Below are positions 8,988 through 54,475 of a stretch of DNA of 64,000 nucleotides, piece by piece. The notes beneath the pieces were generated by a model. That model searched no databases. It worked only from the letters and a program-made list of their open reading frames with translations, and was not told the DNA's origin. The position numbers and the translations under genes are program-made. Numbering within the stretch: the first letter of the stretch is position 1; every line of letters starts with the position of its first letter. The DNA is from Bacillota bacterium (lineage in GTDB: Bacteria > Bacillota > DTU025), in contig JBMNJT010000002.1 of the NCBI GenBank assembly GCA_050951805.1, positions 1,152,001 through 1,216,000 of the forward strand, in the 5' to 3' direction.

Positions 8988-10727
8988 TTGACGCGACCCG
9001 GCCACAAACGAATTGGCGATTATTTGCTCGAGGCGGGGGCGCTCACCGAAGACGAACTCGAAGAGGCGCTCGAGATTCAGCGGCGCACAGGGGAGCGCTT
9101 GGGCAGGGTCCTCGTGAAGTTGGGGCATGTGAGCGAGAGTTCGATTGCAACTGTGATCGAGCGGCAGCTAGGCATTCCCAGAGTGAGCCTTGCGGAGTAT
9201 GTGGTTGCTGATGACGTGATCAAGATTGTTCCCGAAAACATGGCAAGAAGGTACAAGGTTCTTGCTGTCGAAAGGGACGGCAACAAACTGACCCTTGCCA
9301 TGGCTGATCCTCTCAATGTTCTGGCGATTGACGACATAAAGCTGGCTACCGGGTTCGAAGTCAGTCCTGTAGTTGCACCTGAGGACGAAATAGTTCGCGC
9401 GCTAGATCAGTACTACGGTTCTTCTGAGGACCTGGATGAAGTAGTACGCTACCTGGAGAAATACTCTGAAGATGCCATCCGGTTTGCCAGCTACGAAGAG
9501 GAGATAGGCGTTGACCGTCTGCGCGAGCTCGTTGACGAAGCTCCCGTGGTTAGGCTGGTCAACATGATAATCGCCCAGGCTGTGGGAGAACGGGCGTCAG
9601 ATATTCATGTGGAGCCGCATGCCACAGGGGTCAGGGTCAGATACAGAGTAGACGGAATTCTCCGCGAGGTCATGGATCTTCCCAGGGGAAGCCATGCGGC
9701 GATCGCCTCGCGGTTCAAGATAATGAGCAATATGGATATAGCTGAAAGGCGCGTGCCTCAGGACGGCAGAGTTCAGCTGAAGGTGGAGGGCGAAGAGATA
9801 GACCTCAGGGTGTCGACGCTGCCCACCATCTATGGAGAGAAGGTCGTCTGCCGCGTGCTGTTCAGGCGCGGGGCCATGGTCAAACTGGAGCAACTTGGGT
9901 TTCTCCCCGACAACCTGGAGCTTTGGCATCGGGCGCTTTCTTGCCCCTATGGCATTATTCTGGTCACGGGCCCCACAGGAAGCGGGAAGACGCAGACGTT
10001 GTATGCATCGCTGAACCAGTTGAACTCGGTTGAGAAGAACATAATCACTATAGAGGATCCTGTGGAGTTCAGGCTTGACGGGATAAATCAGGTGCAGACG
10101 AATCCCAAGGCGGGCCTGACTTTTGCTTCAGGGCTCAGATCGATGCTGAGACAGGACCCCGACATCATAATGGTGGGAGAGATCCGGGATCGCGATACCG
10201 CCGAGATCGCAGTTAATGCGGCTCTCACGGGCCACCTGGTCCTCTCGACGCTCCACACAAATGACGCGCCGGGCGCAACTGTGCGTTTAGTGGATATGGG
10301 GGCTGAGCCGTTTTTGGTCGCGTCATCTTTGATATGCGTATTATCGCAAAGGCTTGTCCGCAAGGTTTGCACGCACTGTAGGGAAGACTATGTCCCCGAC
10401 GACGAGGAGTGGGGCAGGTGGGTCAGGATGACGCGTGGGCTTTCAGATGAATCCGGCTTGGGGCTCCCTCGCCGCCTTGTGCGCGGGAAAGGGTGTCGCC
10501 AGTGCGGCAACACGGGGTACCGGGGACGGACGGCAATACATGAGATCATGATGGTGACGGAGCCCATACGGGAGCTAGTGTCGGGCAACGCTTCCAGTGA
10601 CGTTGTGGCGGAAGTCGCCAGGGAGCAGGGGATGAGAAGGCTCATCGAGGATGGTGCGGACAAGGTCCGAATGGGGATTACTACTTTGGACGAGGTTATG
10701 AGGGTGGCGGCCGGGTCGGAAGTCTAG
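8988..10727 (+). CDS. pilB: Type IV pilus extension ATPase with N-terminal MshEN domain
   Basis: ASDIHVEP, PQDGR, GPTGSGKT, TIEDPVE, LRQDPDIIMVGEIRD, TGHLVLSTLHTN, and Zn motif CTHC...CRQC. Tandem RIGxxL/RLGxxL MshEN motifs at the N-terminus. Confidence 0.95.
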   Translation: MTRPGHKRIGDYLLEAGALTEDELEEALEIQRRTGERLGRVLVKLGHVSESSIATVIERQLGIPRVSLAEYVVADDVIKIVPENMARRYKVLAVERDGNKLTLAMADPLNVLAIDDIKLATGFEVSPVVAPEDEIVRALDQYYGSSEDLDEVVRYLEKYSEDAIRFASYEEEIGVDRLRELVDEAPVVRLVNMIIAQAVGERASDIHVEPHATGVRVRYRVDGILREVMDLPRGSHAAIASRFKIMSNMDIAERRVPQDGRVQLKVEGEEIDLRVSTLPTIYGEKVVCRVLFRRGAMVKLEQLGFLPDNLELWHRALSCPYGIILVTGPTGSGKTQTLYASLNQLNSVEKNIITIEDPVEFRLDGINQVQTNPKAGLTFASGLRSMLRQDPDIIMVGEIRDRDTAEIAVNAALTGHLVLSTLHTNDAPGATVRLVDMGAEPFLVASSLICVLSQRLVRKVCTHCREDYVPDDEEWGRWVRMTRGLSDESGLGLPRRLVRGKGCRQCGNTGYRGRTAIHEIMMVTEPIRELVSGNASSDVVAEVAREQGMRRLIEDGADKVRMGITTLDEVMRVAAGSEV

Positions 10728-10781: not shown

Positions 10782-11873
10782 GTGACTGATAGCTTGAAGA
10801 TAGACGGATTGCTTATGGAGGCGGTAAATCTCGGGGCTTCAGACCTTCACCTCACTACAGGGCTTCCTCCAATGGTGAGGGTGAGCGGAGCTTTGAAAGC
10901 CCTGGAAGGGCATCTTCCACTCAAACCGGCTGATACTCGCGAAATGATGTACAGCATCATGAAGCCGGACATTCGGGAGAGGTATGAGGCGGCGGGAGAG
11001 GTCGACTTCTCCCACGGTATGCCGGGGGTTGCCAGGTTCAGGGTGAACGCTTATACGCAGCGTGGCTCTGTGGGGGCAGCGTTCAGGGTCATTCCAACAA
11101 GGATCAGGTCCTTGGAGGAACTTGGCCTTCCGCCTGTGGTGAAGACGTTTGCCGACAAGACCAGGGGGATGGTGCTGGTTACCGGTCCCACGGGAAGCGG
11201 AAAGTCGACGACCCTGGCCTCTCTCATTGACATAATCAATTCGGAGCGGGCGTGCCACGTGATCACCTTGGAGGACCCCATAGAGTACCTTCACAAGCAC
11301 CGAAAGAGCATGATCAACCAGAGGGAAGTGGGGACGGACACCAAGTCTTTTGCGGCGGCGCTCAGGGCTGCCCTCAGGGAGGATCCTGATGTTATCCTCG
11401 TGGGGGAGATGCGGGATCTGGAAACGACTTCTATCGCTCTCACAGCGGCTGAAACAGGGCACCTTGTATTTGCCACGCTGCACACAAACGACACGGTGCA
11501 GACTGTGGACAGGATCATTGACCAGTACCCTCCCCACCAGCAGCAGCAGGTGAGGGTTCAGCTTGCGGCGGTACTGCAGGGAGTGGTATCCCAGATTCTG
11601 CTGCCCCGGGCTGATGGCCAGGGAAGGATCGTGGCGGTGGAGGTTCTAGTGGCGAACCCCGCTGTGCGCAACCTTATTCGCGAGGGGAAGACCCATCAGA
11701 TTTATTCAGTGCTTCAGACAGGCGCAAAACAAGGGATGATAAGCCTCGACATGTACCTCGTAGATATGGCGAAACGTGGGATCATTACGTACGATGATGC
11801 GCTGAGCCATGCGACGAACCCTGATGAGATGAGGCGGCTCGGTCAATTCGCTCAGCCGACGATGAGGCTGTAG
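10782..11873 (+). CDS. pilT: Type IV pilus retraction ATPase
   Basis: ASDLHL, GPTGSGKSTTL, EDPIEY, ALREDPDVILVGEMRD, AVRNLIRE. Confidence 0.96.
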   Translation: MTDSLKIDGLLMEAVNLGASDLHLTTGLPPMVRVSGALKALEGHLPLKPADTREMMYSIMKPDIRERYEAAGEVDFSHGMPGVARFRVNAYTQRGSVGAAFRVIPTRIRSLEELGLPPVVKTFADKTRGMVLVTGPTGSGKSTTLASLIDIINSERACHVITLEDPIEYLHKHRKSMINQREVGTDTKSFAAALRAALREDPDVILVGEMRDLETTSIALTAAETGHLVFATLHTNDTVQTVDRIIDQYPPHQQQQVRVQLAAVLQGVVSQILLPRADGQGRIVAVEVLVANPAVRNLIREGKTHQIYSVLQTGAKQGMISLDMYLVDMAKRGIITYDDALSHATNPDEMRRLGQFAQPTMRL

Positions 11874-11891: not shown

Positions 11892-13127
11892 GTGGCAAGT
11901 CTCTCTTGGTCGTATCGTGGGCGCGACACGAGCGGCCGGGTGGTTGAGGGCGTTATGGAGGCGGAAAACGCCGAAGTAGTTGCCGAACGCCTTCGGTCGC
12001 AGGGCTACATTCCTGTGATGATAACTCAGGCGAGGCGATCGGTGTTTGCAGGGGATGCGACGACTGCTTCAGATAGGAAGGCCCAGGCTGCGACGAGCCT
12101 CGACACGATGCAGCTTTCGTTGATTTCGCGTCAGATGGCCACTATGGTGGCTGCCGGGATTCCTCTGGTCCAAACATTGGCCATCCTCTCACAACAGATC
12201 GAGGATCCACGCATCGCCGAGCTCATCAGCGAAGTGAGGCGGAGCGTTGAGTCGGGTGAGACTTTTGCGGCGTCTTTAGCCAAACACCCAGGATGCTTCC
12301 CACCGCTCTTTGCGCACATGGTGGAGGCGGGGGAAGCGTCGGGAACTTTGGACATAGTGATGAGCCGCGTGGCCAACTACTACGAGCAACAAGTGAAGAT
12401 CCGAAGCCAGATAAAGAATGCGTTGGTTTATCCGATAATACTTGTAGCAGTGGCTTTTGTGGTAATCATGATTCTTATGGCGTTCGTGTTGCCCACGTTC
12501 ATCGACATGTTCGAGGGGTTCGACATGGAGCTGCCGTGGGTTACCAGGGTCGTATTCGGGTATGGGCAGAGCGTGCAACGCGCGTGGTACCTCCATTTTG
12601 GAATCCCGACTGTTGTGATTTTCTGGTTTGTGAGCTATGTGAAGGGGTCGGGGAAAAGCTGGTGGGATCATACGGTGCTGAGGCTGAAGGTGTCTGGCCC
12701 GATAGTCAGAAAGAGTCAGACGGCCCAGTTTGCGCGGACTTTTGCCATGCTCACCCAGAGCGGTGTGCCTATGTTGCAATCTCTTGACATTCTTGAAAGA
12801 TTGTCAGATAATGCCGTAGTCAGGGAGACAGTGGAAGCATCGAAGGTCTCCGTCCGCGATGGTGCCGGACTTGCCAGACCTCTCAGACAATCGCAAATAT
12901 TCCCACCGATGCTTGCACACATGGTCGCAGTTGGCGAGGAGACCGGAGACCTCGATGGAATGCTCAACAAGACAGCCGACTTCTTCGAACAGGAAGTTGA
13001 GTACGAGATCCAACGAGTCACGACTGCAATAGAGCCCGTCATGACTCTGATAATCGGGTTCTTCGTGGCGCTCATCGTGGCATCGGTGATGATTCCCATG
13101 TTCAGCATGGCGAGCTTTGGGATTTAG
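11892..13127 (+). CDS. pilC: Type IV pilus platform protein (GspF family)
   Basis: Two T2SSF domains, AGEASGTLD and VGEETGDLD, with TM segments. Confidence 0.95.
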   Translation: MASLSWSYRGRDTSGRVVEGVMEAENAEVVAERLRSQGYIPVMITQARRSVFAGDATTASDRKAQAATSLDTMQLSLISRQMATMVAAGIPLVQTLAILSQQIEDPRIAELISEVRRSVESGETFAASLAKHPGCFPPLFAHMVEAGEASGTLDIVMSRVANYYEQQVKIRSQIKNALVYPIILVAVAFVVIMILMAFVLPTFIDMFEGFDMELPWVTRVVFGYGQSVQRAWYLHFGIPTVVIFWFVSYVKGSGKSWWDHTVLRLKVSGPIVRKSQTAQFARTFAMLTQSGVPMLQSLDILERLSDNAVVRETVEASKVSVRDGAGLARPLRQSQIFPPMLAHMVAVGEETGDLDGMLNKTADFFEQEVEYEIQRVTTAIEPVMTLIIGFFVALIVASVMIPMFSMASFGI

Positions 13128-13368: not shown

Positions 13369-13773
13369 ATGAAGAGGGATCAACGCGGTTTTACACTGAT
13401 GGAACTGATGATCGTTATCGTGATCATCGGTGTGTTGGCGGCGATTGGAGTGCCGGCGTACAAGAACTACGTCACCAAGGCCAAAACGGCAGCTTGTGAG
13501 TCAAACCGGCGTACCATAGCTACTGCGCTTGGTATGTACTATGCGGAGGAAGGCGAGTATCCTATCAGTCTTGGCGACTCCAAGTTGGCTGAGTATGTAT
13601 CCAATATTGCGGAGATCTCGAAGTGTCCAGCCAACAAAGATATATCATATGAGCTTGAGGTTTCAGGCGATGAGGTGAGCGGGTGGAATGTAGCCATCAC
13701 TTGTGGCGAAGAAGGGCATGAACCCTTCATAGTATCAGGCACATATGGGACTGATGTTACTAGTGCTCCATAA
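13369..13773 (+). CDS. pilA: Type IVa pilin 1
   Basis: Class III signal QRG|FTLMELMIV, a hydrophobic helix and GVPAY. GAAGGGAGG RBS. Confidence 0.93.
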
Positions 13774-14261: not shown

Positions 14262-14614
14262 TACGGTTCTTTGGATCATGTAGGAGCACTGAGGATGCTG
14301 CCCATGTCGAGAATGGCGGGCTTTGCGATGTAGTCTAGGAGATAATGGAGGAGAGGTCCAACAATATTGGCGATGGTGAGAGCTCACGTCCTTAGGGAGC
14401 GGTTCAGGTCGAAATGAGGTTTGAGGGCAACATGTTATTCTCACGCGGTTCGGTGTCCCCGATGGCTGCAAAGTCTGCAGCTAGATACGGTTGCCGCACA
14501 TTGTGCTGGTAGAGCATCCGAGTTGTGCAGAGTCGATGAGTGTCGATGAGCTTGGAGTTCCAGCTGTTCAGAGTCTTGATATGAGGGTACGAAGTTGAAG
14601 GGAGGATCTTGCCA

Positions 14615-15016
14615 GTGAGAAATGATCAACGCGGTTTTACATTGATGGAACTGATGATCGTGGTCGTGATCATCGGGGTGTTATCGGCGATTGGGGTGCC
14701 GGCGTATAAGAACTACGTAATTCAGGCCAAAGAGTCCGCCTGTGATGCAAACAGGCGGACTATTGCAACTGCGCTTGGCATGTATTATGCGGAGACTGGC
14801 AAATACCCATCTGAGGAAGATGGCTTTGCCGCCTTGTCCCCGTATGTATCGAATATCGAGGCTATAGCCAAGTGTCCAGCTGATAAGTCGGACTATACCC
14901 TTTCTTCTTCAGGCAGTGAGGAAGTCGGATGGCTTGTGACCATCAACTGCAAGGAACACGGGAAGTTTACAGTAGCAGGAAAACTGTCGGAGGTTGAACT
15001 ACCCAACCAACCCTAG
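14615..15016 (+). CDS. pilA: Type IVa pilin 2 (paralogue of pilin 1)
   Basis: QRG|FTLMELMIV. Shares the leader TTGAAGGGAGGATC and near-identical 5' coding DNA with pilin 1. The GTG start lies 9 nt from GGAGG. Confidence 0.93.
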   Translation: MRNDQRGFTLMELMIVVVIIGVLSAIGVPAYKNYVIQAKESACDANRRTIATALGMYYAETGKYPSEEDGFAALSPYVSNIEAIAKCPADKSDYTLSSSGSEEVGWLVTINCKEHGKFTVAGKLSEVELPNQP

Positions 15017-15191: not shown

Positions 15192-15944
15192 TTGCCGTAT
15201 GCAATCCCGCTAGTCTCATTCATACTCGGCCTGGTGATCGGCAGCTTTCTCAATGTCTGCATCTGCCGTCTGCCGTATGGGGGCTCCATTGTGAGCCCGG
15301 GTTCGGCGTGTCCGAATTGCGGCAGGCCCCTTGCCCCGCGTGACCTGGTCCCGGTAGCAAGCTACGTGGCGCTTGGAGGCAAGTGCAGATACTGCGGGGA
15401 GCCGATCTCGATCCAGTACCCCATCGTGGAGCTTGCGACGGGGTTGCTTTATGCTGCAATCGTATGGACCTATGGCCTCACATTCGAAAGCCTCTCACTC
15501 CTCATCTTCGTCTCCCTGATCATCATCTGTGCCGGGACTGATTTCAATACCGGTCTCATACTCAATTCCGTCACGTTTCCCGGCGTTGCCATTGGAGTTG
15601 CCATGTCATTCGTGGTTCCAAGCATGACACCTTTGGAGTCCCTGCTGGGCCTGCTGGTCTCAGGAGGCGTCGTCTGGATCATGTACGCCGCCACCCGGGG
15701 CCGCGGAATGGGCGGGGGAGACGTCAAGTTCATGGCGATGGTTGGGGCCTTCTTAGGCTGGGACAGGGGCCTGTTGACACTTTTCCTCGGGGCACTGATC
15801 GGCTCGATGGTGGGGATAGCCCGGATCGTCTCCGGGAAGCAGGAGAGGCGCGATCCCATTCCATTCGGACCGTTCTTGTCCATAGGGGCTATCATTTCTG
15901 TCTTCTTCGGCGCGAAGATGCTTGGGTTTCTCCATCTATGGTAG
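15192..15944 (+). CDS. pilD: Prepilin peptidase/methyltransferase
   Basis: GSFLNVCICRLP, SACPNC, GKCRYC, GMGGGDVK, IPFGPFL. Confidence 0.96.
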   Translation: MPYAIPLVSFILGLVIGSFLNVCICRLPYGGSIVSPGSACPNCGRPLAPRDLVPVASYVALGGKCRYCGEPISIQYPIVELATGLLYAAIVWTYGLTFESLSLLIFVSLIIICAGTDFNTGLILNSVTFPGVAIGVAMSFVVPSMTPLESLLGLLVSGGVVWIMYAATRGRGMGGGDVKFMAMVGAFLGWDRGLLTLFLGALIGSMVGIARIVSGKQERRDPIPFGPFLSIGAIISVFFGAKMLGFLHLW

Positions 15945-16009: not shown

Positions 16010-17137
16010 GTGCCGTTGCGCCTCTTTTCCAGACAGAGCAGGAGTATGATCGGAGTAGATATCGGCACCAGCCGCGTCAAGGTTGTGGAACTTGTGGGCC
16101 GCGGCGAGGGTGTTGAACTAACCCGCGCCGCCATCGAGCTTGCGCCGCCCGGGGCCATCCGGGACGGCCAGATAGTCTCGCCTGAACTGGTGGCAGAGGT
16201 TATCCAGCGGGGCTTTGCTAAGGGTCGGATTAAGCCTGGCGAAGTAGTCGCTGCAATAGCTGGTCGGGGAGTAGTCGTAAGGCATGTGAAGTTTCCTAGG
16301 ATGCCCGAAGAGGAACTGAGAGAGGCGATCAAGTGGGAAGGCCAACAGCACATCCCCATGCCCATTGAGGAGGCCGTAGTCGATTTCGAGATCATAGACG
16401 ACTACTCGGGTTCTGATGAGGCCGAGATGGAAGTGATGCTTGTTGCGGCCCCGCGGAAGCTGGTGGAATCGCATGTACAAGCTATCGAGCTGGCTGGACT
16501 TACACCCATTGCCATAGATGTTCAGCCATTTGCTGTCCTCAGGGCTTTAAGATATGAGCCTGGGGATAAGACGCTCCATCCCAATGGTCGGTCAGCAACG
16601 GCATATGTCGACATCGGCGCCGGCACTACCGATATACTCATCGCCCAAGGCGAAAGACTCAGGTTCACGAGAATCGTCCCCTTAGGCGGCAACACCTTCA
16701 CCAACGCTATCGCTGAGACGTTGGGAGTTAGCTTCGAGGAAGCAGAGGCAATAAAGATTGCAAAGGGAAGGGTTTGTGTCGACGGTTGCGGCGAACCTTG
16801 TGCAGACAGGGAGGAACAGGACATCTCGGATGCAATTGCGAATGTCGCCGCAGACGTTGCTATGGATATAAGACGTTCCCTCGACTACCACGACCTGCAA
16901 CTTGAGGGAAGAAGCCAGGATGCCGGAGTGACTAGGGTAGTTCTCACAGGTGGTGCATCAGTAATGGAAGGCCTTGACTGCTACCTCGAGAGCGAGCTGG
17001 GTCTTGCGACTGTGATGGGCGACCCACTGAAGAGCATCCTTGTAAACCAGAGGCTAGCCAACAAGGAGGAACTGTCGAGACTTGGCCCCATGTTCGCTGT
17101 GGGTATAGGCCTTGCCCTTCGGGAGGTGGTTGACTGA
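16010..17137 (+). CDS. pilM: Type IV pilus assembly protein PilM
   Basis: IGVDIGTSRVKVV, VDIGAGTT, VLTGGAS, AVGIGLALR (actin-like fold). Confidence 0.95.
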   Translation: MPLRLFSRQSRSMIGVDIGTSRVKVVELVGRGEGVELTRAAIELAPPGAIRDGQIVSPELVAEVIQRGFAKGRIKPGEVVAAIAGRGVVVRHVKFPRMPEEELREAIKWEGQQHIPMPIEEAVVDFEIIDDYSGSDEAEMEVMLVAAPRKLVESHVQAIELAGLTPIAIDVQPFAVLRALRYEPGDKTLHPNGRSATAYVDIGAGTTDILIAQGERLRFTRIVPLGGNTFTNAIAETLGVSFEEAEAIKIAKGRVCVDGCGEPCADREEQDISDAIANVAADVAMDIRRSLDYHDLQLEGRSQDAGVTRVVLTGGASVMEGLDCYLESELGLATVMGDPLKSILVNQRLANKEELSRLGPMFAVGIGLALREVVD

Positions 17138-17682
17138 TGTCAAAGATCAACCTGCTTCCGCAGCGGGAACCGGAAGAATCCGGGATAAGCCCGGCCAAGC
17201 TCGGACTGATAATCGTCCTTGAGATTGCCATAGTGGGCGCTTCAGCGCTCTATGCCTACAGGCACTTCTTCATACAGCAATTGGAGGAGGATATCGATAG
17301 GATAGAGGCCCAAATTGGAGCGATTCGGGCAGATGTCGAGGCCGTGGAAAAGGTGCAACGGCGAACTGCCGATATCAGGAAACGAATAGATGAAGCTGAA
17401 GCTATCAGCGCTGAGGGCCTCGCATCGGGCCGTGTTATGAGAGAAGTTCGGGACATCATTCCCAGGGACATCTGGCTTTCGTCTCTTTCAATCAACCCCG
17501 ATGGCGGAGTGAGCCTTGCAGGAGACACCTTCTCCATAGAATCAGTGGCCCGCTTTGCACTGGCTATCGAGGATTCGCCCATGTTCGGCGAGGCTCATGT
17601 GGGGTCTGTAAGCTTAGCAGCTGAGGGAGATTACGAGGTGTACGACTTCAACATCGACTGCATGCTTGATGCTCGGAGGTGA
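17137..17682 (+). CDS. pilN: PilN
   Basis: INLLP motif, a TM segment, a coiled coil and IPRDIWLSSL. Confidence 0.92.
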   Translation: MSKINLLPQREPEESGISPAKLGLIIVLEIAIVGASALYAYRHFFIQQLEEDIDRIEAQIGAIRADVEAVEKVQRRTADIRKRIDEAEAISAEGLASGRVMREVRDIIPRDIWLSSLSINPDGGVSLAGDTFSIESVARFALAIEDSPMFGEAHVGSVSLAAEGDYEVYDFNIDCMLDARR

Positions 17683-18308
17683 CAGGCATGTCTCTTTCGA
17701 CGGAAGTCAACCCCAAGCAGGCCAAGACATTTATCGTGCTGATTATATTGGCTGCGGCGGGCCTCCTTTATATGTACGTGTTCGCCCCCCAAGCGCGAAA
17801 ACTGGCGGACGCCAGAACGCGTCTTGACGAGGCCAACTCCGTGCTGACAGTAGACTTGGCCAAGATTCGAGGCGCCGGGAGGTCCGAAGAAGAACTTGAA
17901 CTTGCCATGGCCCAACTGGAGAACTTTGAGCGCCTTATTCCCCGAGAAGACAGAATACACTACGTCCTCCGCGATATGGAGTCAGTCGCCCTGTCCAACC
18001 ATGTTGCCATTGACAGCCTCACCATCGCCTCCGGCATGCCGCGGGGGCAGTACGTCGAGATACCAATGACCTTGAACGTTTCCGGAACATACAACAACAT
18101 AATCGGCTTTCTGGACGGAATTGCAGACATTGAGCGGGTCATGAATGTGCACAGCCTTTCTTTTGGAGGGGGGCGAGAACTCTGGCGTGAAGGCGGTGGA
18201 ACCCAGGATCGAGCGGTCCGTTCGCCAGATGCTTATATATCTTCAACAATTCAGGTAACGACATACGCCAGGCCGAGGGGTGATGATCAGGTTGGCGCTG
18301 GATCTTAG
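17679..18308 (+). CDS. pilO: PilO
   Basis: TM segment and coiled coil, YVEIPMTLNVSGTYNNIIGFL..I..IERVMNV. Located after pilN. Confidence 0.9.
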   Translation: MTGMSLSTEVNPKQAKTFIVLIILAAAGLLYMYVFAPQARKLADARTRLDEANSVLTVDLAKIRGAGRSEEELELAMAQLENFERLIPREDRIHYVLRDMESVALSNHVAIDSLTIASGMPRGQYVEIPMTLNVSGTYNNIIGFLDGIADIERVMNVHSLSFGGGRELWREGGGTQDRAVRSPDAYISSTIQVTTYARPRGDDQVGAGS

Positions 18309-18906
18309 CAGAGAATCCCGGAACGAGTGGCCGTCTCCAGACGGCGAAACCGAAGCTAGAAAGAGGAAATACAGATGGACCGCCCTCATAGTTGCGCTGT
18401 TGCTCGTCGCGTCATTTTCCGGCTACATGTGGTTCCTGAAGAATCGAAAGCCGGATCGGTATCCTGGTGGGTCTGACGTGGTTGCCGGAGGGCGTGTTGC
18501 CGCTAGGCTCTCGGCTCTGCTCGACCAGAGCCACGAGTATGGTTGGTCCAGAGTGGAAGAGGAGCTTTCGCCGGTGGGGCATGGTCGTTGGGACCCGTTC
18601 AAGACTTTGCTTCCCGATCCGGTGCAGATAGTCCCCGTGGAACCGAGGACGCCGATTCCAGCTTTGCCGGAGCCCGAAGATTCAGCCCCTTGTGAACCGG
18701 CTTTGCCCAAGGTTCGGCTGACCGGAGTCTTAAAGTCGGGCGATAGGGCGATTGCATTGCTTTTAGTGGACGGGAGAAGCGTGATAACGCGCGTCGGAGA
18801 CGCGCCCTTCGATGGCGCAGAGGTCCGCTCTATCGACGACAAGTCCATAACGATTTCGTTTGGCGGGACTGATTTCACTTACCAACTGGGAGGTGAGCGG
18901 AGATGA
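18280..18906 (+). CDS. PilP/GspC-like membrane-anchored alignment protein
   Basis: N-terminal TM, GRWDPF motif, Pro-rich linker, and C-terminal VRLTGVL...AIALL...VGD...V..I beta domain. Sits between pilO and pilQ. Confidence 0.7.
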   Translation: MMIRLALDLSRESRNEWPSPDGETEARKRKYRWTALIVALLLVASFSGYMWFLKNRKPDRYPGGSDVVAGGRVAARLSALLDQSHEYGWSRVEEELSPVGHGRWDPFKTLLPDPVQIVPVEPRTPIPALPEPEDSAPCEPALPKVRLTGVLKSGDRAIALLLVDGRSVITRVGDAPFDGAEVRSIDDKSITISFGGTDFTYQLGGERR

Positions 18907-21900
18907 GAAATAGGGGATTGGGAAGGCGAGCGGCGGCAGCATTGGCTCTCATCTTGTGCCTGGCCTTCGCTGGGCAGGCTGCATTTGGCGCCTTGGAGCG
19001 CCGCGTCGATCTTGACCTGGTAGATGCTGAACTTGCAGACGTGTTTCGCGCCCTAGCGGAACTGGGAGATATGAATATAGTGCTCGACCCCGCGGTACGC
19101 GGAACCCTCACAATTCGCCTTCATGGCCTTGCAGTCGAAGACGCGCTTAGGCTCGTCGCCTACACTACCGGCGTGAAATACAGGGTCGAAGGCTCTACAA
19201 TGATCGTCCTTCCGCCGGGCGCTGTTTCAACCAGCCTGGAGCCGCTGGGCATCGAGAAGTTCTCGCTCACCTATGCCAGAACGACTGACGTTATTGGCCC
19301 TGCAAGGCTTGTTGCAGGCGGAGCGAAACTGGAGGCGGATGAGCGGACCAACTCCATCATCGCCTGTGGGTCAGCCGAAGAGCTCAGGGCCATAGGTGAT
19401 GTACTGAGGATGCTTGACGTTCCTGTCCAGTTGCCTCCGGAGGCCATCGCTTCGCTTGCCGATGCTGGGTTGTCTTCGGGCCGCGAGTCTCTCGAGATTA
19501 TTAGGCTCCAACATGCCCCCGCCCAGGGGGTGGCCGACCTGTTGGCCTTGGTGGTTCCTGCCGACAGGATGCGGGTGGATTCACGCACGAACACCATAGT
19601 GGTCATCATTGACGAGGCCTCCCGTGAAAGAGCGATGAAGATAGTATCCGAAGTGGACGTGGCAGAGCCCCCTGATGATGGAGGTTTTTCGAGTGTTCCC
19701 GGGAAGGGTGTAAACCTGCAGACTGAGGCAGTCGAGGCCGAGACGGTGAAAGTGATCAAGCTTGCGTGGGCCCCCGTGGACAGGGTCCGTGAAGCCCTCA
19801 GTGTCATCATCGACCTTTCCAAGGTTGGAATGGATTCACGCACAAATTCGCTCATTGTAAATGCGACGCCTGAACAGATAGCCCGGATTGAAGAGGTTGT
19901 GACTCTTCTCGATGTCGCTGTGGTAGCCGGGGAAAAGCAGCCTGCACCAGCCCATGATGGTATACATATGTTCAAGCTCGAGCACGCATCAGCCAAATCA
20001 GTGCGAGACGTCCTTACCATGATCCTGCCCCCTGAAAAAATGCAGGTGGACGAGAGGACGAACACCGTGGTGATAATGGCGGATGATGATACTTGCGCTC
20101 GAGTTGTAGAACTTGTTGAGACTTTGGATGTAGAAACTGCGGCCGACCAGGCACTCATCGGGGAAGAGAAGATCGTTGAGACTATCCCCTTGGCCCATGC
20201 CTCTTTGGATGCAATTCGAGATGCCCTGGCTTTGGTGGTGCCGAAAGAAGCTGTCGTAATCGATGAGAGGACGCGGTCGGTAATCGTGAAAGGCACCCGG
20301 TCGCAGCGTGAGCGTGCCCGCGAGATCGCAGCCCTTCTTGACGTGCCGGACGGGCCTTTACATGAGACAGGAGCCGCGACAGATCCCTCTTCGGAGCCGA
20401 CAACCAACATCCGCGCATTCAGGCTTCGTGAGGCCGACCCTGAATCCGTTAAAGAGGCCCTCTCGATGGTGATGCCGAAGACTTCTATTTATGTGGACGC
20501 GCGCACCAAATCTGTATTGGTCGTCGGGCTCTTAGACGAACTGGCCCGTGCAGCGGAGATCGTTGCCCTTATCGACCAACCATCTCGTGATGACGTCAGT
20601 GTGGGTTTGGCAAAAGGCGAGTCGGAAATCCTGGAAATGAGGGTGATCCGGCTGGTTCATGCCCCGGCTGCGAAAATTCGGGATATGATTGCTCCGATAA
20701 TGCCGGAGATCAGGATTGCCGCGGACGAGCGTAGCAATTCATTGCTGATAGTTGCTTCCCCGTCTTTGCAGGAGCGCGCAGCTAGCGTGGTGACGGCTCT
20801 CGACATAGAGGTTCTCCAGCCCGAGCAGGGCACTGAGCCTGCAGCGCCGCGCGATCCCGAGGTGACCCGGGTGGTTACGCTTGCCCATGCCGAAGCCGCA
20901 GAGGTTCGTGAGGCTTTGGCCCCGATAGTGCCGATTTCCAGCATCACTGTGGATCCCCGTACGAATTCCTTGGTGATCGTGGCGGCGCAGTCGAAGATGG
21001 ACAGGGCGCTGGACGTTGTGGCGAAACTGGATGTGGAGACTGCGGCGAGTTCCGAGAGCCTCCCTGAGGAGGCGGCGCACGTGTCCGAAAGCCCGAAAGC
21101 CGAGGTGGTGAGGTTGAAATATGCATCGCCATCGAAGGTTCGGGATGCCCTGGCGCCTACGATTCCCGTATCGAGGATAAGCGTGGACGAGCGAACCGGG
21201 TCGCTCGTTATCGTGGGAACAGAGGCCGAGATGACACAGGCCCTTGCGATTATAGACAAGCTCGACATAGAGGTTCTCCAGCCCGAGCAGGGCACCGAGC
21301 CTGCAGCGCCGCGTGATCCCGAGGTGACCCGGGTGGTGACGCTTGCCCATGCCGAAGCCGCAGAGGTTCGTGAGGCTTTGGCCCCGATAGTGCCGATCTC
21401 CAGCATCACTGTGGATCCCCGTACGAATTCCTTGGTGATCGTGGCGGCGCAGTCGAGGATGGACAGGGCGCTGGACGTTGTGGCAAAACTGGATGTGGAG
21501 ACTGTGGCGAGTTCCGAGAGCCTCCCTGAGGAGGCGGCGCACGTGTCCGAAAGCCCGAAAGCCGAGGTGGTGAGGTTGAAATATGCATCGCCATCGAAGG
21601 TTCGGGATGCCCTGGCGCCTACGATTCCCGTATCGAGGATAAGCGTGGACGAGCGAACCGGGTCGCTCGTTATCGTGGGAACAGAGGCCGAGATGACACA
21701 GGCCCTTGCGATTATAGACAAGCTCGACATAGAGGTTCTCCAGCCCGAGCAGGGCACCGAGCCTGCAGCGCCGCGTGATCCCGAGGTGACCCGGGTGGTG
21801 ATGCTTGCCCATGCCGAAGCCGCAGAGGTTCGTGAGGCTTTGGCCCCGATAGTGCCGATCTCCAGCATCACTGTGGATCCCCGTACGAATTCCTTGGTGA

Positions 21901-23330
21901 TCGTGGCGGCACAGTCGAGGATGGACAGGGCCCTTGAAGTCGTGGGGAAGCTCGACATAGAAGTTGGCACTGCCGAGGAGGAACATGACTTGGCGCAGGC
22001 GGAGCGGCCTGAGGTCGTGGCCTACAGGCTTGCATACGCGAGCGCAGAGTCGCTGCGCCCTGCTTTGGGTCTCGTTGCGTCCCCTTCCGACTTGGAAGTT
22101 GACGAAAGGACAAATACTTTGATCGTCAGGGCCGTGCCTTCGGTGCAGGAACGTGTAGCAGAGCTCGTGGCGTCCCTCGACATACCTGTGGAGGTGCCGA
22201 AAGCCCCCGAGCCCGGGCTCGAGATATTGCGGATTTTCAGACTGAAGCATGCCTCGCCGTCGGAGATGAAATCGCTTTTGGGCTTGATTGCGCCAAAGGC
22301 CAAGATGCAGCCGGATGACCGGACAGGTTCTCTCGTGGTTCTCGCTCCCGCTGAAACCATCCCTGAATTGGAGGCGCTCATCGAGAGCCTGGACCTTCCA
22401 TCAGTGGCGTCAAAGGACGAGCCTGACCCGGTGGTGACCAGGATATACAGGCTCAACTACGCATCGCCTTCCGACATCGAGCGGGCCTTGGGAAGCTTCG
22501 TAGAAGGAACCATAGGATCAGATGCCCGAACATCCTCAGTCGTGGTAAGAGCGGCCCAGTCCGAACAGGCGAAGGCGCTCGAGCTCATAGACTCCCTCGA
22601 TTCAGAACTTCCCCAAGTGCTGATCGAGGCGAGGCTGGAGGAACTAACGGGAGACGCAGCCAGGAAACTGGGTATCGACTGGACCTTTTCAGGCCTCTCA
22701 TTCGGCGAGAATGCCTTTGGCCAGTGGGTGAGTGTTAGCATGGACTTCCTTGCCAACCTTACCGCCTTGGAGGAATCGGGACATGCAACGCTAATAAGCA
22801 GGCAGCATACTTTCACCGTTGACGGCAAGACAGGGAAGATCCTCATAGGCGACAGGATCCCTATCATAACCCAGGAAGTCCAGGACGGGCAGGCCGTGAA
22901 TAGAGTGGAGTTCATAAACGCAGGCATCGAGCTTGCGATAACTCCCAAAGTGAGCAGCGACGGGACTATAACTGCCACGGTCAAGCCGGTGATCAGCTCG
23001 ATAGTGGGGTGGACTCCTCAGAACTACCCGCAGATCAGGACTAGAGAGCTGGAAACTGTAGTTTCCCTTAAGAGTGGACAGACTGCTGTCATCGGCGGAC
23101 TCCTACATCGCGACGAGGTGGAGGGGATGGCAAAGGTGCCGCTTTTGGGAGATATCCCGCTTCTGGGAGAGTTGTTCAAGAAGCGGACTACGACTACAAA
23201 CACCACAGAGCTGGTGATGTTGATCACGGCGTACCAGGTCAACCCCGGGCAGCGGTCGGCAGTGGGACCTGCGCAGGAAGGCGACTCATTCCCGATAGTA
23301 GTGGAAGATGCGCTGGGCGGAAAGAAGTGA
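18903..23330 (+). CDS. pilQ: Giant type IV pilus secretin (N0 + about 15 N3-type domains + secretin barrel)
   Basis: Signal peptide, N0 (VDLDLVDAELADVFRALAELGDMNIV), 15 repeats of L.(H/Y)A...V...L...D.RT.S.IV...LD, and C-terminal PQVLIEARL...GIELAITPKV...RELETVV...VIGGL...KVPLLGDIPLLGELFK. Confidence 0.93.
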   Translation: MRNRGLGRRAAAALALILCLAFAGQAAFGALERRVDLDLVDAELADVFRALAELGDMNIVLDPAVRGTLTIRLHGLAVEDALRLVAYTTGVKYRVEGSTMIVLPPGAVSTSLEPLGIEKFSLTYARTTDVIGPARLVAGGAKLEADERTNSIIACGSAEELRAIGDVLRMLDVPVQLPPEAIASLADAGLSSGRESLEIIRLQHAPAQGVADLLALVVPADRMRVDSRTNTIVVIIDEASRERAMKIVSEVDVAEPPDDGGFSSVPGKGVNLQTEAVEAETVKVIKLAWAPVDRVREALSVIIDLSKVGMDSRTNSLIVNATPEQIARIEEVVTLLDVAVVAGEKQPAPAHDGIHMFKLEHASAKSVRDVLTMILPPEKMQVDERTNTVVIMADDDTCARVVELVETLDVETAADQALIGEEKIVETIPLAHASLDAIRDALALVVPKEAVVIDERTRSVIVKGTRSQRERAREIAALLDVPDGPLHETGAATDPSSEPTTNIRAFRLREADPESVKEALSMVMPKTSIYVDARTKSVLVVGLLDELARAAEIVALIDQPSRDDVSVGLAKGESEILEMRVIRLVHAPAAKIRDMIAPIMPEIRIAADERSNSLLIVASPSLQERAASVVTALDIEVLQPEQGTEPAAPRDPEVTRVVTLAHAEAAEVREALAPIVPISSITVDPRTNSLVIVAAQSKMDRALDVVAKLDVETAASSESLPEEAAHVSESPKAEVVRLKYASPSKVRDALAPTIPVSRISVDERTGSLVIVGTEAEMTQALAIIDKLDIEVLQPEQGTEPAAPRDPEVTRVVTLAHAEAAEVREALAPIVPISSITVDPRTNSLVIVAAQSRMDRALDVVAKLDVETVASSESLPEEAAHVSESPKAEVVRLKYASPSKVRDALAPTIPVSRISVDERTGSLVIVGTEAEMTQALAIIDKLDIEVLQPEQGTEPAAPRDPEVTRVVMLAHAEAAEVREALAPIVPISSITVDPRTNSLVIVAAQSRMDRALEVVGKLDIEVGTAEEEHDLAQAERPEVVAYRLAYASAESLRPALGLVASPSDLEVDERTNTLIVRAVPSVQERVAELVASLDIPVEVPKAPEPGLEILRIFRLKHASPSEMKSLLGLIAPKAKMQPDDRTGSLVVLAPAETIPELEALIESLDLPSVASKDEPDPVVTRIYRLNYASPSDIERALGSFVEGTIGSDARTSSVVVRAAQSEQAKALELIDSLDSELPQVLIEARLEELTGDAARKLGIDWTFSGLSFGENAFGQWVSVSMDFLANLTALEESGHATLISRQHTFTVDGKTGKILIGDRIPIITQEVQDGQAVNRVEFINAGIELAITPKVSSDGTITATVKPVISSIVGWTPQNYPQIRTRELETVVSLKSGQTAVIGGLLHRDEVEGMAKVPLLGDIPLLGELFKKRTTTTNTTELVMLITAYQVNPGQRSAVGPAQEGDSFPIVVEDALGGKK
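20799..21931 (+). repeat. In-frame tandem repeat of a 462-bp unit, about 2.45 copies, inside pilQ
   Basis: CTCGACATAGAGGTTCTCCAGCCCGAGCAGG starts at 20799, 21261 and 21723. The copies differ by only a handful of substitutions. Confidence 0.97.
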
Positions 23331-25733: not shown

Positions 25734-26825
25734 GTGAGGCGCATTGTTCGAGATCTTGTGGCGGAACAGATCTGTCCGGCTCTCCCCCCACGTGCCCGCG
25801 AGGCTGTTAAGGCTCTGCCTGATGAGGTCAGACAGAGCCTTACAGAGATAAGGCTGAGGCGTGGGCGTCCCGCCATGGGAGTGGTGCCTGAGGGCGACTT
25901 TTACCTCTCCTCAGACGGACAACCCTTGTGGCTGGACCGTGGCAGGGCGGCCTTTAGCTCGGAGATTCCCGCAAGCGCGGTCATGTGCAGTGAGGATGAG
26001 TGGGACGCTGCGATGCGGCTTGTAACAGAATGCTCCATATACGCCCTTGAGAGGGAGCTCGCCGCGGGCTACATCACTCTCCGCGGGGGGCACAGGGTGG
26101 GGCTCGTGGGCCGTGCTGTCCTAGAAGGGGGCCGAATTCGGACGCAGCGGGAGCTTTCGGCCATGAATTTCCGGATAGCAAGGCAGATCATTGGCGCAGC
26201 AGACAGTATCATGCCTTACATTGTTCGCCGCGTCGGAACGTTACAGCACCATCGGGTTTCAGTCTTTAGCACTCTCATCCTTTCCGGGCCCGGGTACGGC
26301 AAGACGACTCTGCTCCGGGATATTGCACGACAGCTTTCGTACGGTCAAAACGGAACGGGCCTCATGGTTGGCGTCGTGGACGAGCGTTCTGAGATCGCCG
26401 CATGCTCAGGCGGCATTCCTGGAAACGACTTGGGCCCAAGAGCGGACGTAATCGATAGCTGCCCGAAGGCCGAAGGAATGATGATCATGATAAGGTCGAT
26501 GTCGCCCGATGTCATCGTTACTGACGAGATAGGCCATGCCGCTGACAGCGAGGCTATCGAAGAGGCGCGCAGGTGCGGCGTGGCTGTGATTGCCAGCGCC
26601 CACGCTTCCGACTGGGATGATGCGCAAAGGAGGCCCGCCCTACGCGACATTTTGGCTCGGGGCGCGTTTGAAAGAGGAATACTCCTCAGCAACAGGCTTG
26701 GAATTTGCACGTGTGAACGCATTGTCCACATGGCGACAGGGACAGATCTCTTGGATTCCCCGTTTCTTCTTTCGGCCCGGGCGGACGAAAGGGACGGAGG
26801 TGCATGCAGATGCGGGTTGCGCTGA
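25734..26825 (+). CDS. spoIIIAA: Stage III sporulation protein AA
   Basis: EIRLRRGRP, GYITLRGGHRVG, GYGKTTLLRDIAR, VDERSEIA, RSMSPDVIVTDEIG. Confidence 0.96.
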   Translation: MRRIVRDLVAEQICPALPPRAREAVKALPDEVRQSLTEIRLRRGRPAMGVVPEGDFYLSSDGQPLWLDRGRAAFSSEIPASAVMCSEDEWDAAMRLVTECSIYALERELAAGYITLRGGHRVGLVGRAVLEGGRIRTQRELSAMNFRIARQIIGAADSIMPYIVRRVGTLQHHRVSVFSTLILSGPGYGKTTLLRDIARQLSYGQNGTGLMVGVVDERSEIAACSGGIPGNDLGPRADVIDSCPKAEGMMIMIRSMSPDVIVTDEIGHAADSEAIEEARRCGVAVIASAHASDWDDAQRRPALRDILARGAFERGILLSNRLGICTCERIVHMATGTDLLDSPFLLSARADERDGGACRCGLR

Positions 26826-27352: not shown

Positions 27353-27387
27353 CGAACCTTGCGCACAATGAAAAGGAGGGCCTAACA

Positions 27388-27585
27388 GTGGGGCTCGACT
27401 TGGTCCTGAGGATAGCAGGCGTAGGCATTCTCGCCTCGGTGCTGTGCACGATCCTGAAGCAACAGGATAAAGAGGAATACTCGTTGCTGGTAGCCACGGC
27501 TGGGCTCGTGGTGGTCTTCGTCATGCTCTTGGATTATATAGAGGAACTGCTTTCAAGCGTGCGCACTGTATTCAGACTATGGTAA
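27388..27585 (+). CDS. spoIIIAC: Stage III sporulation protein AC
   Basis: DLVLRIAGVGILASVLCTILKQQDKEE...VRTVFRL. AAGGAGG RBS before the GTG at 27388. Confidence 0.92.
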   Translation: MGLDLVLRIAGVGILASVLCTILKQQDKEEYSLLVATAGLVVVFVMLLDYIEELLSSVRTVFRLW

Positions 27586-27600
27586 GGGGCGGACTGCGAC

Positions 27601-50019: not shown

Positions 50020-50038
50020 TTGTTGAACGCACGCGGAG

Positions 50039-52087: not shown

Positions 52088-54475
52088 ATGATGTCTGAGA
52101 TTTCGAAGCGGCTGAGCATCACAGCGATAAGTGTGCTGATAGTGATCTCGCTAATGTCCTCAGCAGTCCTGGCGGCGCCGGTCACAATAAGGGACGTGCC
52201 GGAGGATCATTGGGCATACGAAGCAGTGAAGCTTCTTGTAGAAAAGGGATATATGGGCGTATATGAGAGCGGCAATTTCTGTGGAGATGATCCGGTCAGC
52301 AGGTATTTGCTTGCCTTTGTGACGGCAAAACTCCTCCGTGATGTGGAGGCGGGCCGTACAACTCTGAGCGAGGACGACATGAGAGTGGTTAGGGAGACAG
52401 CCACGGTCCTCAGGGAGCAGTTGGCTGTGGTCACTGCCAGGCTGGAGGAGGTAGAGCGGATTGCCGCCGGTGCGGCAGGCGACGCCAAAATCGCGCAGGA
52501 GACTTCTGCTTCAGTGGCGCTCAACTACAGCCGGTTGGAACAGGCCATGGAGGAGCAGCGCAAGCAATTGCTGGCGGAGATCGGAAAGACCGCGGGTGCG
52601 TCCGATCAGAAGCTTACTGCGGTCTTCGGTGATCTGAAGAAACAGAGTCAAGAGATCGAAACAGAGCTGGGCCAGGAGATTTCGGAGCTTGCGGCCAGAG
52701 CCGACTCCTTGGAGGCTTTTGCACATAGGTCGTTTGCTTCTGAGGCCCAGTCTCGTGCTGATCTCGAGGCCAAGCTGACGCTATCTCTGAATAAGATCAG
52801 CGAGGACCAGCGGGCTTATGTTGCCCAGATGAATGAGCTCGGGGCGCGGGTAAATGACGTTGACGGAAGATTGAACGCGCTTCAGTCGGAGACGGGATCA
52901 CGCATAGCCACGCTCTCTCTCAGGCTTGATGACACAGCTAAAGGCTTGGCAGCGAATAAGGCCTGGATGGAGAGCGCATTGGCAGCGCTTGATAACAAGG
53001 TCAGCCAGCTGTCAGACGCTTTGGATGCTCAGCGCGTCGACACTGAGCTGAAGCTCGGGTCGATGCAGGCATATCAGAACGGACAGCTTTCATCTGCCAT
53101 AGAGGGCGAACGTGTTGCTAGGGAAAAGGCAGATGCAGGACTGGTGCAACAGATAGATGCTCTGTCGCTTTCTCTGAGCAAGGAGACTCAAGAGCGGAAG
53201 GCTTCGGATGCGGAGATTGCGGCCCGCCAAGCTGAGCTCGAATCGACGCTCAATCTCAAGATAGACAGCGCGATCCAGACTGAGCGTGCCACGCGAGCTT
53301 CCGAACTTGCCGAACTCATGGCGAGGCTGGAGTCTTTAACATCGTCCCAGGACGAATTGGAGCAGACAACTGCTCTCAGATTGGCTGCGGGGATAGAACG
53401 TGAAAAGGCCGATAGGGAAAAGGCGCAGGCAGGACTGGCGCAACAGGTAAGCGCCTTGTCTTTGTCCTTGGATGAAGAGTCCAAAGCGCGAGAGGCTCTG
53501 GGCCTCGATATGTTGGCCCGCCAAGCTCAGCTTGAATCTGCGCTAACTCGCAAAATCGACAGTGCGATCGAAGGCGAAAACGCCGACAGGAAGGCGGCTT
53601 ATGCGGAACTCTCGAGCAAGATAGATGCCTTTTCACTTTCCTTGGGCAAGGAACTCGAGACCGAGCGCGCGCAGCGTGAAGCGGCAGATATTGCCCACCA
53701 GGAAGAGGCAAGAAGGATTCTGGATGAAATTGCGGCCGCCCGGCGCGACATTACTGACATAGAAAGAAAGACTGCAGAAGCAGACGCTGCCATCATTGCG
53801 GCCCTGGAGATCCAGGAGAGCCGAGTCGCCGAACTCGGTGCAGAACTTGCACGTCTCGCTGCAGATGTGAGGACCCTCCAGGAGTATGCTGCAGGCATCG
53901 AGGCGGAGCTGCTCCAGATGTCTGAAAAGACCAGCGAGGATTATGCGTCACAGCAAGCTGCCCTGGCGGAGTTGGCGAAGGCCTTGGACCAGACATCTGC
54001 CGATCTGTCAGCGGCCATCAAGGCCAATGCCGCAGAAGACCTGAAGACCAACGGAAGGGTGCTTCAGAACACCATGCGCATTCAGGATGTGGCGAGGAGT
54101 CTTGACGCTACGAATGAACGTTTGGGGCAGACCGATGTAGCAGTTCGTCAGGCCGAAGGCTCGATAGAGGAGATAACTGCTAGGCTCGCCGAGATAGATT
54201 CACATCTAGCAAGCATAGACAGGTTGCTTGCAGGAAGTGTGGACGAGTTAGCCAAAAAATTCTCGGATGACCTTGTGGCGGAAAGATGGGAAGCCGAGAT
54301 GAGAGAGGTCAAGCTTCAATCGATGATTGAAGAGCTTGAGGCGAGGGTGGAAAAACTTGAGGGTGAGAAGGCCCAGGCAGATGCGAAAAAGCCCGGTTCT
54401 GCCGGAGCCATCGTTGCAGTACTCGGCGTTATTGCCGCTGTAGCTGCAATAGCTATAGGAAGCGGGGGCAAGTAG
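52088..54475 (+). CDS. SLH-domain protein with a very long coiled coil and C-terminal hydrophobic anchor (Omp-alpha-like)
   Basis: Signal peptide, SLH (RDVPEDHWAYEAVKLLVEKGYM..Y..G.F.GDDPVSRY), about 670 aa of helical heptad-type sequence, and C-terminal GAIVAVLGVIAAVAAIAIG. No beta-barrel. Confidence 0.85.
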   Translation: MMSEISKRLSITAISVLIVISLMSSAVLAAPVTIRDVPEDHWAYEAVKLLVEKGYMGVYESGNFCGDDPVSRYLLAFVTAKLLRDVEAGRTTLSEDDMRVVRETATVLREQLAVVTARLEEVERIAAGAAGDAKIAQETSASVALNYSRLEQAMEEQRKQLLAEIGKTAGASDQKLTAVFGDLKKQSQEIETELGQEISELAARADSLEAFAHRSFASEAQSRADLEAKLTLSLNKISEDQRAYVAQMNELGARVNDVDGRLNALQSETGSRIATLSLRLDDTAKGLAANKAWMESALAALDNKVSQLSDALDAQRVDTELKLGSMQAYQNGQLSSAIEGERVAREKADAGLVQQIDALSLSLSKETQERKASDAEIAARQAELESTLNLKIDSAIQTERATRASELAELMARLESLTSSQDELEQTTALRLAAGIEREKADREKAQAGLAQQVSALSLSLDEESKAREALGLDMLARQAQLESALTRKIDSAIEGENADRKAAYAELSSKIDAFSLSLGKELETERAQREAADIAHQEEARRILDEIAAARRDITDIERKTAEADAAIIAALEIQESRVAELGAELARLAADVRTLQEYAAGIEAELLQMSEKTSEDYASQQAALAELAKALDQTSADLSAAIKANAAEDLKTNGRVLQNTMRIQDVARSLDATNERLGQTDVAVRQAEGSIEEITARLAEIDSHLASIDRLLAGSVDELAKKFSDDLVAERWEAEMREVKLQSMIEELEARVEKLEGEKAQADAKKPGSAGAIVAVLGVIAAVAAIAIGSGGK

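Follow-up and report, generated by a model that had tools for sequence, protein, structure and literature searches.

A giant 15-module PilQ-type secretin in a class of diderm Bacillota, and two SLH-anchored spacers that may set a wide envelope

A 64,000-nucleotide stretch of a Bacillota bacterium genome (GTDB lineage Bacteria; Bacillota; DTU025; assembly GCA_050951805.1, contig JBMNJT010000002.1, positions 1,152,001 to 1,216,000), called the window below, was analysed around its pilQ gene, which encodes a type IV pilus secretin. The gene (18903..23330, forward strand) is a single open frame of 1475 amino acids (aa), identified as pilQ by the frame itself, Pfam, and its solved PilQ relatives. 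Pfam found 15 stretches of Secretin_N (PF03958, 480 bits, E 1.9e-147) in this frame. The Secretin outer-membrane domain (PF00263) lies at aa 1288–1444 (22764..23234) and scored 136 bits against a cut-off of 27.5. The N0 match (aa 37–73, 23.7 bits) and the STN match (aa 57–104, 21.5 bits) were below the Pfam cut-offs of 27 and 28.4, respectively, and mark a putative N0/STN domain at aa 37–104 (19011..19214). A stretch homologous to this domain scored at or above the STN cut-off in 7 of 22 relatives, among them P0006, P0020, and P0022. A profile iterated from one module recovered the same 15 modules, from aa 120–175 to aa 1180–1235. The modules are 56–58 aa each, are joined by linkers of 12–28 aa, and form an array at aa 120–1236 (19260..22610). 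A sequence-only reading of this DNA had counted 15 ring modules after N0 in a PilQ of 1475 aa, and both profile counts gave that number. The motif that it had picked out (L.[HY]A ... D.RT.S.IV ... LD) is the module consensus in the alignment.

The best matches among solved structures were Pseudomonas aeruginosa PilQ (6ve2, E 1.1e-28) and Myxococcus xanthus PilQ (3jc8); in all, 22 solved secretins were matched at E ≤ 1e-5. Module 8 aligned over its full length with N1 of GspD (residues 112–170 of 5wln and 115–173 of 4ec5). N2 and N3 of GspD matched the C-terminal half of the module, with N3 covering its C-terminal 35 aa at the best local score. The GspD domains N1–N3 (5wq7, 5wln, and 4ec5) belong to the same ring-building family, and a D.RTNSL...LD motif aligns with all three. 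Of these three domains in GspD, N2 and N3 carry insertions, whereas the modules here are of N1 size. The modules are best assigned as generic minimal Secretin_N domains, predicted to build rings. Since only N1 aligned over the full length, the label "N3-type" in the sequence-only reading was too specific and was dropped.

AMIN domains are typical of proteobacterial PilQ and not of Thermus PilQ. No AMIN match (PF11741) was found in the 1475-aa secretin by the Pfam scan at E ≤ 0.01, as had been expected from the letters. The protein was therefore filed beside Thermus-type PilQ rather than proteobacterial PilQ. Textbook secretins have one to six periplasmic rings. In the available part of the source, Thermus thermophilus PilQ has 757 aa and six rings (N0–N5), is 350 Å long, and its rings are said to span a wide periplasm (PMC5745081). 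As far as that part of the source goes, it resembles the present protein as a type IV pilus secretin with several N domains and no AMIN. It differs from the N0 plus 15 minimal modules found here, which are known from the gene alone and are in part recent tandem copies. On these published figures, the estimate first made from the letters holds: the ring domains here number about three times those in Thermus PilQ.

Modules 8–12 lie in a 462-bp ×2.5 tandem duplication with two modules per unit (20799..21945, forward strand; Tandem Repeats Finder, 98% matches). Copies 1 and 2 of the unit differ at 7 of 462 nucleotides, and five of these differences are synonymous. Module 8 is 98% identical to module 10, module 9 is 100% identical to module 11, and module 12 is 91% identical to module 10. 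Three of the 15 modules stem from this duplication. The number 15 could also be an assembly error: if the repeat was expanded too far or too little, the gene would in fact carry 13 or 17 modules. The contigs of all four public short-read runs compared (two DNA, two RNA-library) break within the repeat and none bridges 20.8–21.95 kb, so the count may be off by one two-module unit; the same contigs covered at least 99% of the unique parts of pilQ. Against such an error, the unit copies can be told apart by their seven differences, and similar duplications were seen in relatives. The window contig is 1.56 Mb in an 8-contig genome, a size that suggests long reads. We regard the error as quite unlikely, and it would shift the conclusion by two modules only. 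One contig joint that skipped 1628 positions (21504 to 23133) had a short side of 25 letters and loose ends on both sides. It was taken as the secretin of another organism and set aside.

pilQ is the last gene of a pilB-pilT-pilC-pilins-pilD-pilM-pilN-pilO-pilP-like operon on the forward strand, and Pfam matches were obtained for all of these genes but pilP. The operon starts with a PilB-like assembly ATPase of 579 aa (8988..10727; T2SSE 463 bits, MshEN domain). A second ATPase of 363 aa follows (10782..11873; T2SSE 158 bits), putatively named PilT-like, a name that its size fits. The platform protein PilC has 411 aa (11892..13127; T2SSF, two stretches). A type IV pilin of 134 aa (13369..13773; N_methyl motif, E 3.7e-10) and a second pilin or pseudopilin of 135 aa (14609..15016; N_methyl, T2SSG) precede the prepilin peptidase PilD of 250 aa (15192..15944; A24_N_bact, Peptidase_A24). 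Next come PilM (375 aa, 16010..17137; PilM_2, 181 bits), PilN (181 aa, 17137..17682; PilN, E 7.8e-11), and PilO (209 aa, 17679..18308; PilO, E 1e-14).

The pilP-like gene (208 aa, 18280..18906) overlaps the pilQ ATG with its stop codon. Its product gave no Pfam match and was assigned from a class profile. The protein comprises a single membrane helix, a linker rich in Pro, and a beta domain at its C-terminus. A profile of 12 homologues from the class, this one included, matched Neisseria meningitidis PilP (2ivw, E 3.3e-4; 4av2_M). The gene is kept immediately 5' of pilQ in 11 further genomes of the class.

A secretin of type II secretion or of another system was also considered. A relative is annotated by one source as "type II secretory pathway component GspD/PulD", and Secretin_N is common to all secretin systems. 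The frame is translationally coupled to the pilM-N-O-P-like set, shares its operon with pilins, pilD, and a PilT-like ATPase, and has PilQ proteins as its best solved matches, all of which make a function outside pili highly improbable. Domain matches, operon genes, and solved structures agree on a PilQ-type secretin in the type IV pilus operon of a diderm, which upholds the gene's original naming.

The host genome has 2.75 Mb in 8 contigs and is 97% complete. One cluster (L050:8994-16257) encodes BamA with three POTRA repeats, Skp/OmpH, LptF/G, LptC, and LptA, and the flagellar ring proteins FlgH and FlgI are encoded as well. Therefore, the host was identified as diderm. The search of this 97%-complete genome gave no match to LpxC or to the C-terminal domain of LpxA. 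An LpxB-like match was only weak, and the same family also matched B. subtilis among the control genomes. The host may be a diderm whose outer membrane lacks lipid A yet retains the Lpt genes. Within the cluster, a frame of 1103 aa (L050:11512-14823) matches LptF_LptG only over its first 353 aa, with about 750 uncharacterised residues fused behind. The genes 3' of pilQ are a prolidase, efp, spoIIIAA, spoIIIAB, and spoIIIAE. The three spoIII genes (window 25734-29393, 2.4 kb 3' of pilQ) are engulfment-channel genes in an organism with an outer membrane, and from their presence the host is taken to form spores.

The stretch, or no fewer than half of the words sampled from it, occurred in 20 runs of 14 digester, sludge, and bioreactor studies. 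Six were RNA libraries, in which presence is no proof of transcription. The gene is the type IVa pilus secretin of a spore-forming diderm Bacillota from anaerobic digesters. The literature search found no description of a lineage named "DTU025".

A word-index protein search gave 359 matches, of which the best 120 were listed; the first 22 form a close group. These 22 listed relatives have 35–64% identity and 932–1574 aa, and where the source gives a name it is "Firmicutes", "Clostridia", or "Bacillota bacterium". Relatives retrieved by name are all uncultured metagenome-assembled genomes. Pfam at its strict threshold found 7–16 Secretin_N in the listed close relatives, and the family profile found 9–16 modules in all 22. 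The host's GTDB class consists of one order with 21 species genomes. The protein search found a multi-module PilQ in 18 of the 21, complete in some and truncated at contig ends in others, and not in G003 (72% complete), G015 (77%), or G012 (96%, with a 499-aa secretin only). The array has 11 modules in G001 and G006; 12 in G010; 13 in G002, G009, G016, and G014; 14 in G008; 14–15 in G020; 15 in this genome; 16 in G013; and 19–20 in G019. G004 has at least 13, and G017 has 13–14 plus 2 modules over two frames.

Since 18 of 21 class genomes and all 22 listed close relatives share many modules, the array is a class trait rather than the oddity of a single gene. The sequence-only reading had presented the protein as exceptional; 10–15 N domains proved routine among its kin, and that part of the claim was given up. 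The giant pilQ of G017 is split into frames of 1121 and 379 aa (L096, G017:C13:349500-357000) by a frameshift, a stop, or a sequencing error. The PilQ of G019 (L093:1260-6584, G019:C4) is the largest of the class, with 1775 aa and 19 Pfam stretches.

Of 301 sampled genomes of the phylum, 68 had a secretin. The longest frames outside the class in that sample were 1103, 1056, 1038, 995, and 981 aa. The eleven of these outgroup secretins that matched Secretin_N had at most five stretches, and three others were Tad-type with BON domains. Outside the phylum, 19 of the 98 other listed matches were picked for length and scanned. In 16 of the 19, 12–22 Secretin_N stretches preceded one Secretin domain, as in the long array described here. 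Source names for some of these proteins (P0024–P0081) are Planctomycetota, Verrucomicrobia, and Phycisphaerales, and the sources annotate them as type II secretion protein D. They differ from the present protein by an identity of only 22–24% over long alignments, a length of 1523–2554 aa, and modules that are often longer. The many-module arrays of Planctomycetota and Verrucomicrobia are probably an independent expansion.

The modules at the array ends keep the profile match and are only 30–55% identical to their nearest copy in the same protein; they are therefore old. Block duplications of varying age lie in the middle of the array in several lineages, with 98–100% identity in this genome, 100% in G019 (a five-module block), and 89% in P0002. 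Further block duplications have 78% (G009), 74% (G004), and 71% (G008) identity. Array length would change through tandem duplication of module blocks.

SLH domains were found in three frames of the host genome, and two of these frames encode long putative spacers. Spacer 1 (G000:C2:711946-715644; L048:13947-17645) is an OmpM/SlpA-like protein of 1232 aa encoded about 4 kb downstream of the BamA-Lpt cluster. It consists of a signal peptide, an SLH domain, a Pro-rich linker, a helical region at about aa 140–705, and about 530 aa ending in F. The SLH domain matched PF00395 with 44 bits, Veillonella parvula OmpM 8bys with E 5.5e-14, and Deinococcus radiodurans SlpA 7zgx with E 6e-11. The final F is shared with all 18 barrel-type SLH proteins of the outgroup genomes. 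Atlas look-alikes of the C-terminal part included one cluster with Porin_4 in 24% of its members (score 0.93).

The helical region of spacer 1 measures about 565–606 aa, with no Pro at aa 138–671 and no Gly at aa 322–648. It is built of 37-aa repeats with a hydrophobic period of exactly 3.70, that is, ten turns per repeat, and has no heptads. Because near-identical 74-aa double units occur in it, spacer 1 too seems to grow by tandem duplication. Three copies of the stalk at aa 330–650 gave a trimer score of 0.28 against a mark of 0.32, which counts neither way. Spacer 1 was matched in 20 of the 21 class genomes, with stalks of 416–705 aa in the 14 measurable ones. Just 3' of its gene (L048:18196-19647), a frame of 483 aa has an SLH-like N-terminus by eye, ends in F, and gave no Pfam match. 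Possibly this is another outer-membrane protein, with a short stalk; that would be odd beside a wide gap.

Spacer 1 shares with SlpA and V. parvula OmpM (7zgx, 8bys, and 8bym) the order of SLH domain, helical stalk, and, putatively, C-terminal outer-membrane part. Its stalk is much longer than that of SlpA, roughly 160 aa (about 28 nm), and the stalk of OmpM is shorter still. Its 37-aa repeat takes the place of the heptads of SlpA and OmpM. According to the accessible part of the report on D. radiodurans, the SlpA coiled coil is about 28 nm long, which equals the 30 ± 3 nm measured between outer membrane and wall; for phyla with shorter stalks, a narrower periplasm is deduced (PMC9388160). Thermus also has a long connector of SLH domain, coiled coil, and barrel, the plan proposed here for spacer 1.

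Spacer 2 (P0123) is an Omp-alpha-like protein of 795 aa encoded in the window itself (52088..54475, forward strand). A signal peptide and an SLH domain (E 1.5e-6) are followed by a helical rod of about 680 residues and a C-terminal hydrophobic membrane helix. There is no Pro between aa 70 and 768, the hydrophobic period is 3.5–3.6, and the region would form a coiled coil. Spacer 2 was found in 20 of the 21 class genomes, and G019, with the most modules, also has the longest Omp-alpha-like frame (952 aa). The Omp-alpha of Thermotoga has about 380–400 aa and a rod of about 45–50 nm. In the available part of the source, Thermotoga maritima Omp-alpha has an N-terminal SLH domain, a stalk formed by a long coiled coil, and a membrane helix at the C-terminus (PMC9388160), a plan that spacer 2 shares with its longer helical region. 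At window 49036-52063, 5' of spacer 2, lie a frame of 327 aa without a family and one of 674 aa that carries a NEW3/NPCBM-associated domain; a subtilase lies 3' of the spacer at 55204-56400. These may be envelope proteins co-located with the spacer.

An established figure for helices is 0.15 nm per residue. Fully extended, the stalks would reach about 85 nm in spacer 1 and about 100 nm in spacer 2. In the proposed arrangement, the C-terminal Secretin domain would be the gated pore in the outer membrane, and N0 would dock onto the PilM-N-O-P platform at the inner membrane. A 12–15-mer with stacked rings is characteristic of the secretin superfamily. The most likely role of the 15 modules would be to form a pile of rings, one upon another, as a conduit of about 60–85 nm. 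The higher value is expected for 16 N layers plus the secretin at the Thermus spacing of 350 Å per 7 layers, and the lower for 3.5 nm per ring. Such a conduit would lead the pilus through the space separating outer membrane from cell wall, a gap that would be unusually wide and would be set by the two very long SLH-anchored spacers of 1232 and 795 aa. If array length changes by block duplication, the conduit could follow changes in spacer length. We consider it rather probable that a 15-ring PilQ conduit is matched to a wide gap set by two spacers and is tuned in length by module duplication. The domain content, the operon, the distribution in relatives, the duplications, and the presence and lengths of the spacers are observed; the ring stacking, the nanometre figures, and a causal link between spacers and modules are what we infer from the genes.

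The relation between spacer and secretin length was investigated in outgroup genomes picked on secretin length alone. The longest OmpM-like or Omp-alpha-like stalk was compared with the number of residues before the Secretin domain. Stalk limits were set by eye or automatically, some of them approximately; the automatic limits (longer window) correlated with those by eye at rho 0.96. In the first set of 10 genomes plus this one, the rank orders were identical (rho 1.0), and a crude automatic limit gave 0.85. Pooling 18 outgroups with this genome (n = 19) gave a Spearman coefficient of 0.66 (p 0.002) for the limits by eye, and the automatic limits gave 0.58 (p 0.009). With G220 and G063 removed post hoc, rho was 0.95 by eye (16 genomes, one per genus) and 0.88 with automatic limits (17 genomes). 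Within the class, the length of the PilQ frame correlated with the OmpM-like stalk at rho 0.67 (n = 9, p 0.05) and with the Omp-alpha-like frame at rho 0.72 (n = 9, p 0.03).

Several results weigh against a conduit matched to its spacers. In a second, prospective set of 10 genomes, G164 and G038 had no SLH tether, and the other eight gave a rho of only 0.31. The low value arose because G220 (stalk about 216 aa, secretin 389 aa) and G063 (about 555 and 409 aa) combine long stalks with short secretins. The secretins of these two genomes consist of N0, one N domain, and the pore, have no pil genes adjoining, and resemble the host's own second secretin; without these two orphan secretins, rho was 0.83 (n = 6). 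Within the class, the OmpM-like stalk and the number of modules correlated at rho 0.37 (n = 10, not significant). The co-variation figures overstate the evidence because kin are not independent. The class member G012, which is 96% complete, has both spacers yet only a 499-aa secretin.

Further points of this kind concern the host itself. The stacking of rings is a prediction from sequence. Extended spacers of 85–100 nm would exceed a tight 16-ring array of about 60 nm, and the two would agree only if the layers were about 5 nm apart, as in Thermus. The putative barrel part of spacer 1 showed no detectable similarity to solved chains, with only chance matches (E ≥ 1.7) in the profile search. 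The host's second secretin (G000:C3:16438-18003; L049:8439-10004) has 521 aa and one Secretin_N, and because of this it could not span a wide gap. Its Secretin match, with an equal score of 141.9 bits, had been considered as an assembly duplicate and was rejected, since it is a distinct protein of 521 aa. The genes for the flagellar rod and rings have ordinary sizes (FlgG 262 aa, FlgH and FlgI present). In the accessible part of a study on enteric bacteria, contact with the outer membrane sets flagellar rod length, and a longer Lpp tether gives a longer rod (PMC5771553). If that also applies here, ordinary flagellar genes are no contradiction.

The second secretin gene lies directly 5' of a gene for a 2036-aa RHS-repeat protein (G000:C3:18015-24125; L049:10016-16126), beside an IS21-type transposase. 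The pair may be a secretin-linked toxin export cassette.

These results also bear on the possibility that array length is unrelated to envelope width. Modules could multiply by slippage or unequal crossing-over and form a flexible string, or bind wall or DNA in place of AMIN. The frequent near-identical block duplications show a high turnover, linkers of 12–28 aa could permit flexibility, the stalk follows module number only weakly within the class (rho 0.37), and long spacers stand beside short secretins in G220, G063, and G012. On the other hand, no complete class frame has fewer than 11 modules and no listed close relative fewer than 9. The modules outside the recent duplicates match the profile despite 30–55% identity, and hence are old and maintained. 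Of the 7 differences that separate the young copies, 5 are synonymous, and the co-variation across lineages was positive in all versions computed. An array without relation to the envelope is therefore considered unlikely.

A conduit crossing thick material, such as a very thick wall or extra layers, with the modules lining a tunnel, is another explanation. The sequence-only reading had proposed a thick wall together with a wide periplasm. The two long SLH-anchored spacers and the spacer-secretin co-variation lend that proposal indirect support in its general form, a wide space to be crossed; a gap and its filling cannot be separated by sequence. D. radiodurans, in the part of the source available, has a thick wall together with a 121-nm periplasm (PMC9388160). 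Each SLH spacer joins the wall to the outer membrane, with one end bound to each. As described for SlpA in the same part of that source, spacer length would therefore measure a distance outside the wall. Thick material is a variant of the wide-gap arrangement rather than a true alternative, and it has a low probability in our estimate.

The wide gap would follow a principle known from enteric bacteria. According to the accessible part of the study, the length of the Lpp tether sets the distance between outer membrane and wall, and the flagellar rod and RcsF must match it (PMC5771553). The spacers would act likewise. The Lpp work, in that part, is based on experiment and on an unrelated lipoprotein, whereas here the rule is drawn from gene lengths and for a secretin. 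A bolder extension is that the whole uncultured diderm class has a loose, toga-like outer membrane about 85–100 nm off the wall, with two rulers, with a pilus secretin that follows them over evolution by gain or loss of module blocks, and with ring number as a read-out of envelope width that can be taken from the genome. We hold this as a tentative proposal, with the odds somewhat against it. The same rule may lie behind the 12–22-module secretins of Planctomycetota and Verrucomicrobia.

The literature search, which left most subscription journals outside its range, found no secretin with more than six N domains and no link between secretin length and OmpM or SlpA stalks. The available part of a paper on slime nozzles (PMC12475490) holds nothing on N-domain number.

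The giant-PilQ annotation is correct, and the protein is a class-wide variant of a known machine. The single gene is less surprising because the trait is class-wide and the protein is already annotated as a secretin in databases. The wide envelope, which draws on two further gene families and comparative trends, is plausible on indirect grounds. A conserved secretin of 11 to 20 rings would, if true, be the longest such conduit known. Together with two spacers that match it in length, it would provide a sequence-only predictor of envelope width for bacteria that cannot be grown. The principle that periplasm size matters would also be extended beyond enteric bacteria, where it was established by experiment for Lpp, to cover pilus machines and diderm Bacillota. 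The young tandem duplications would show how such a machine changes length, and the apparent absence of lipid A synthesis genes in the class bears on the retention and loss of the outer membrane in Bacillota.

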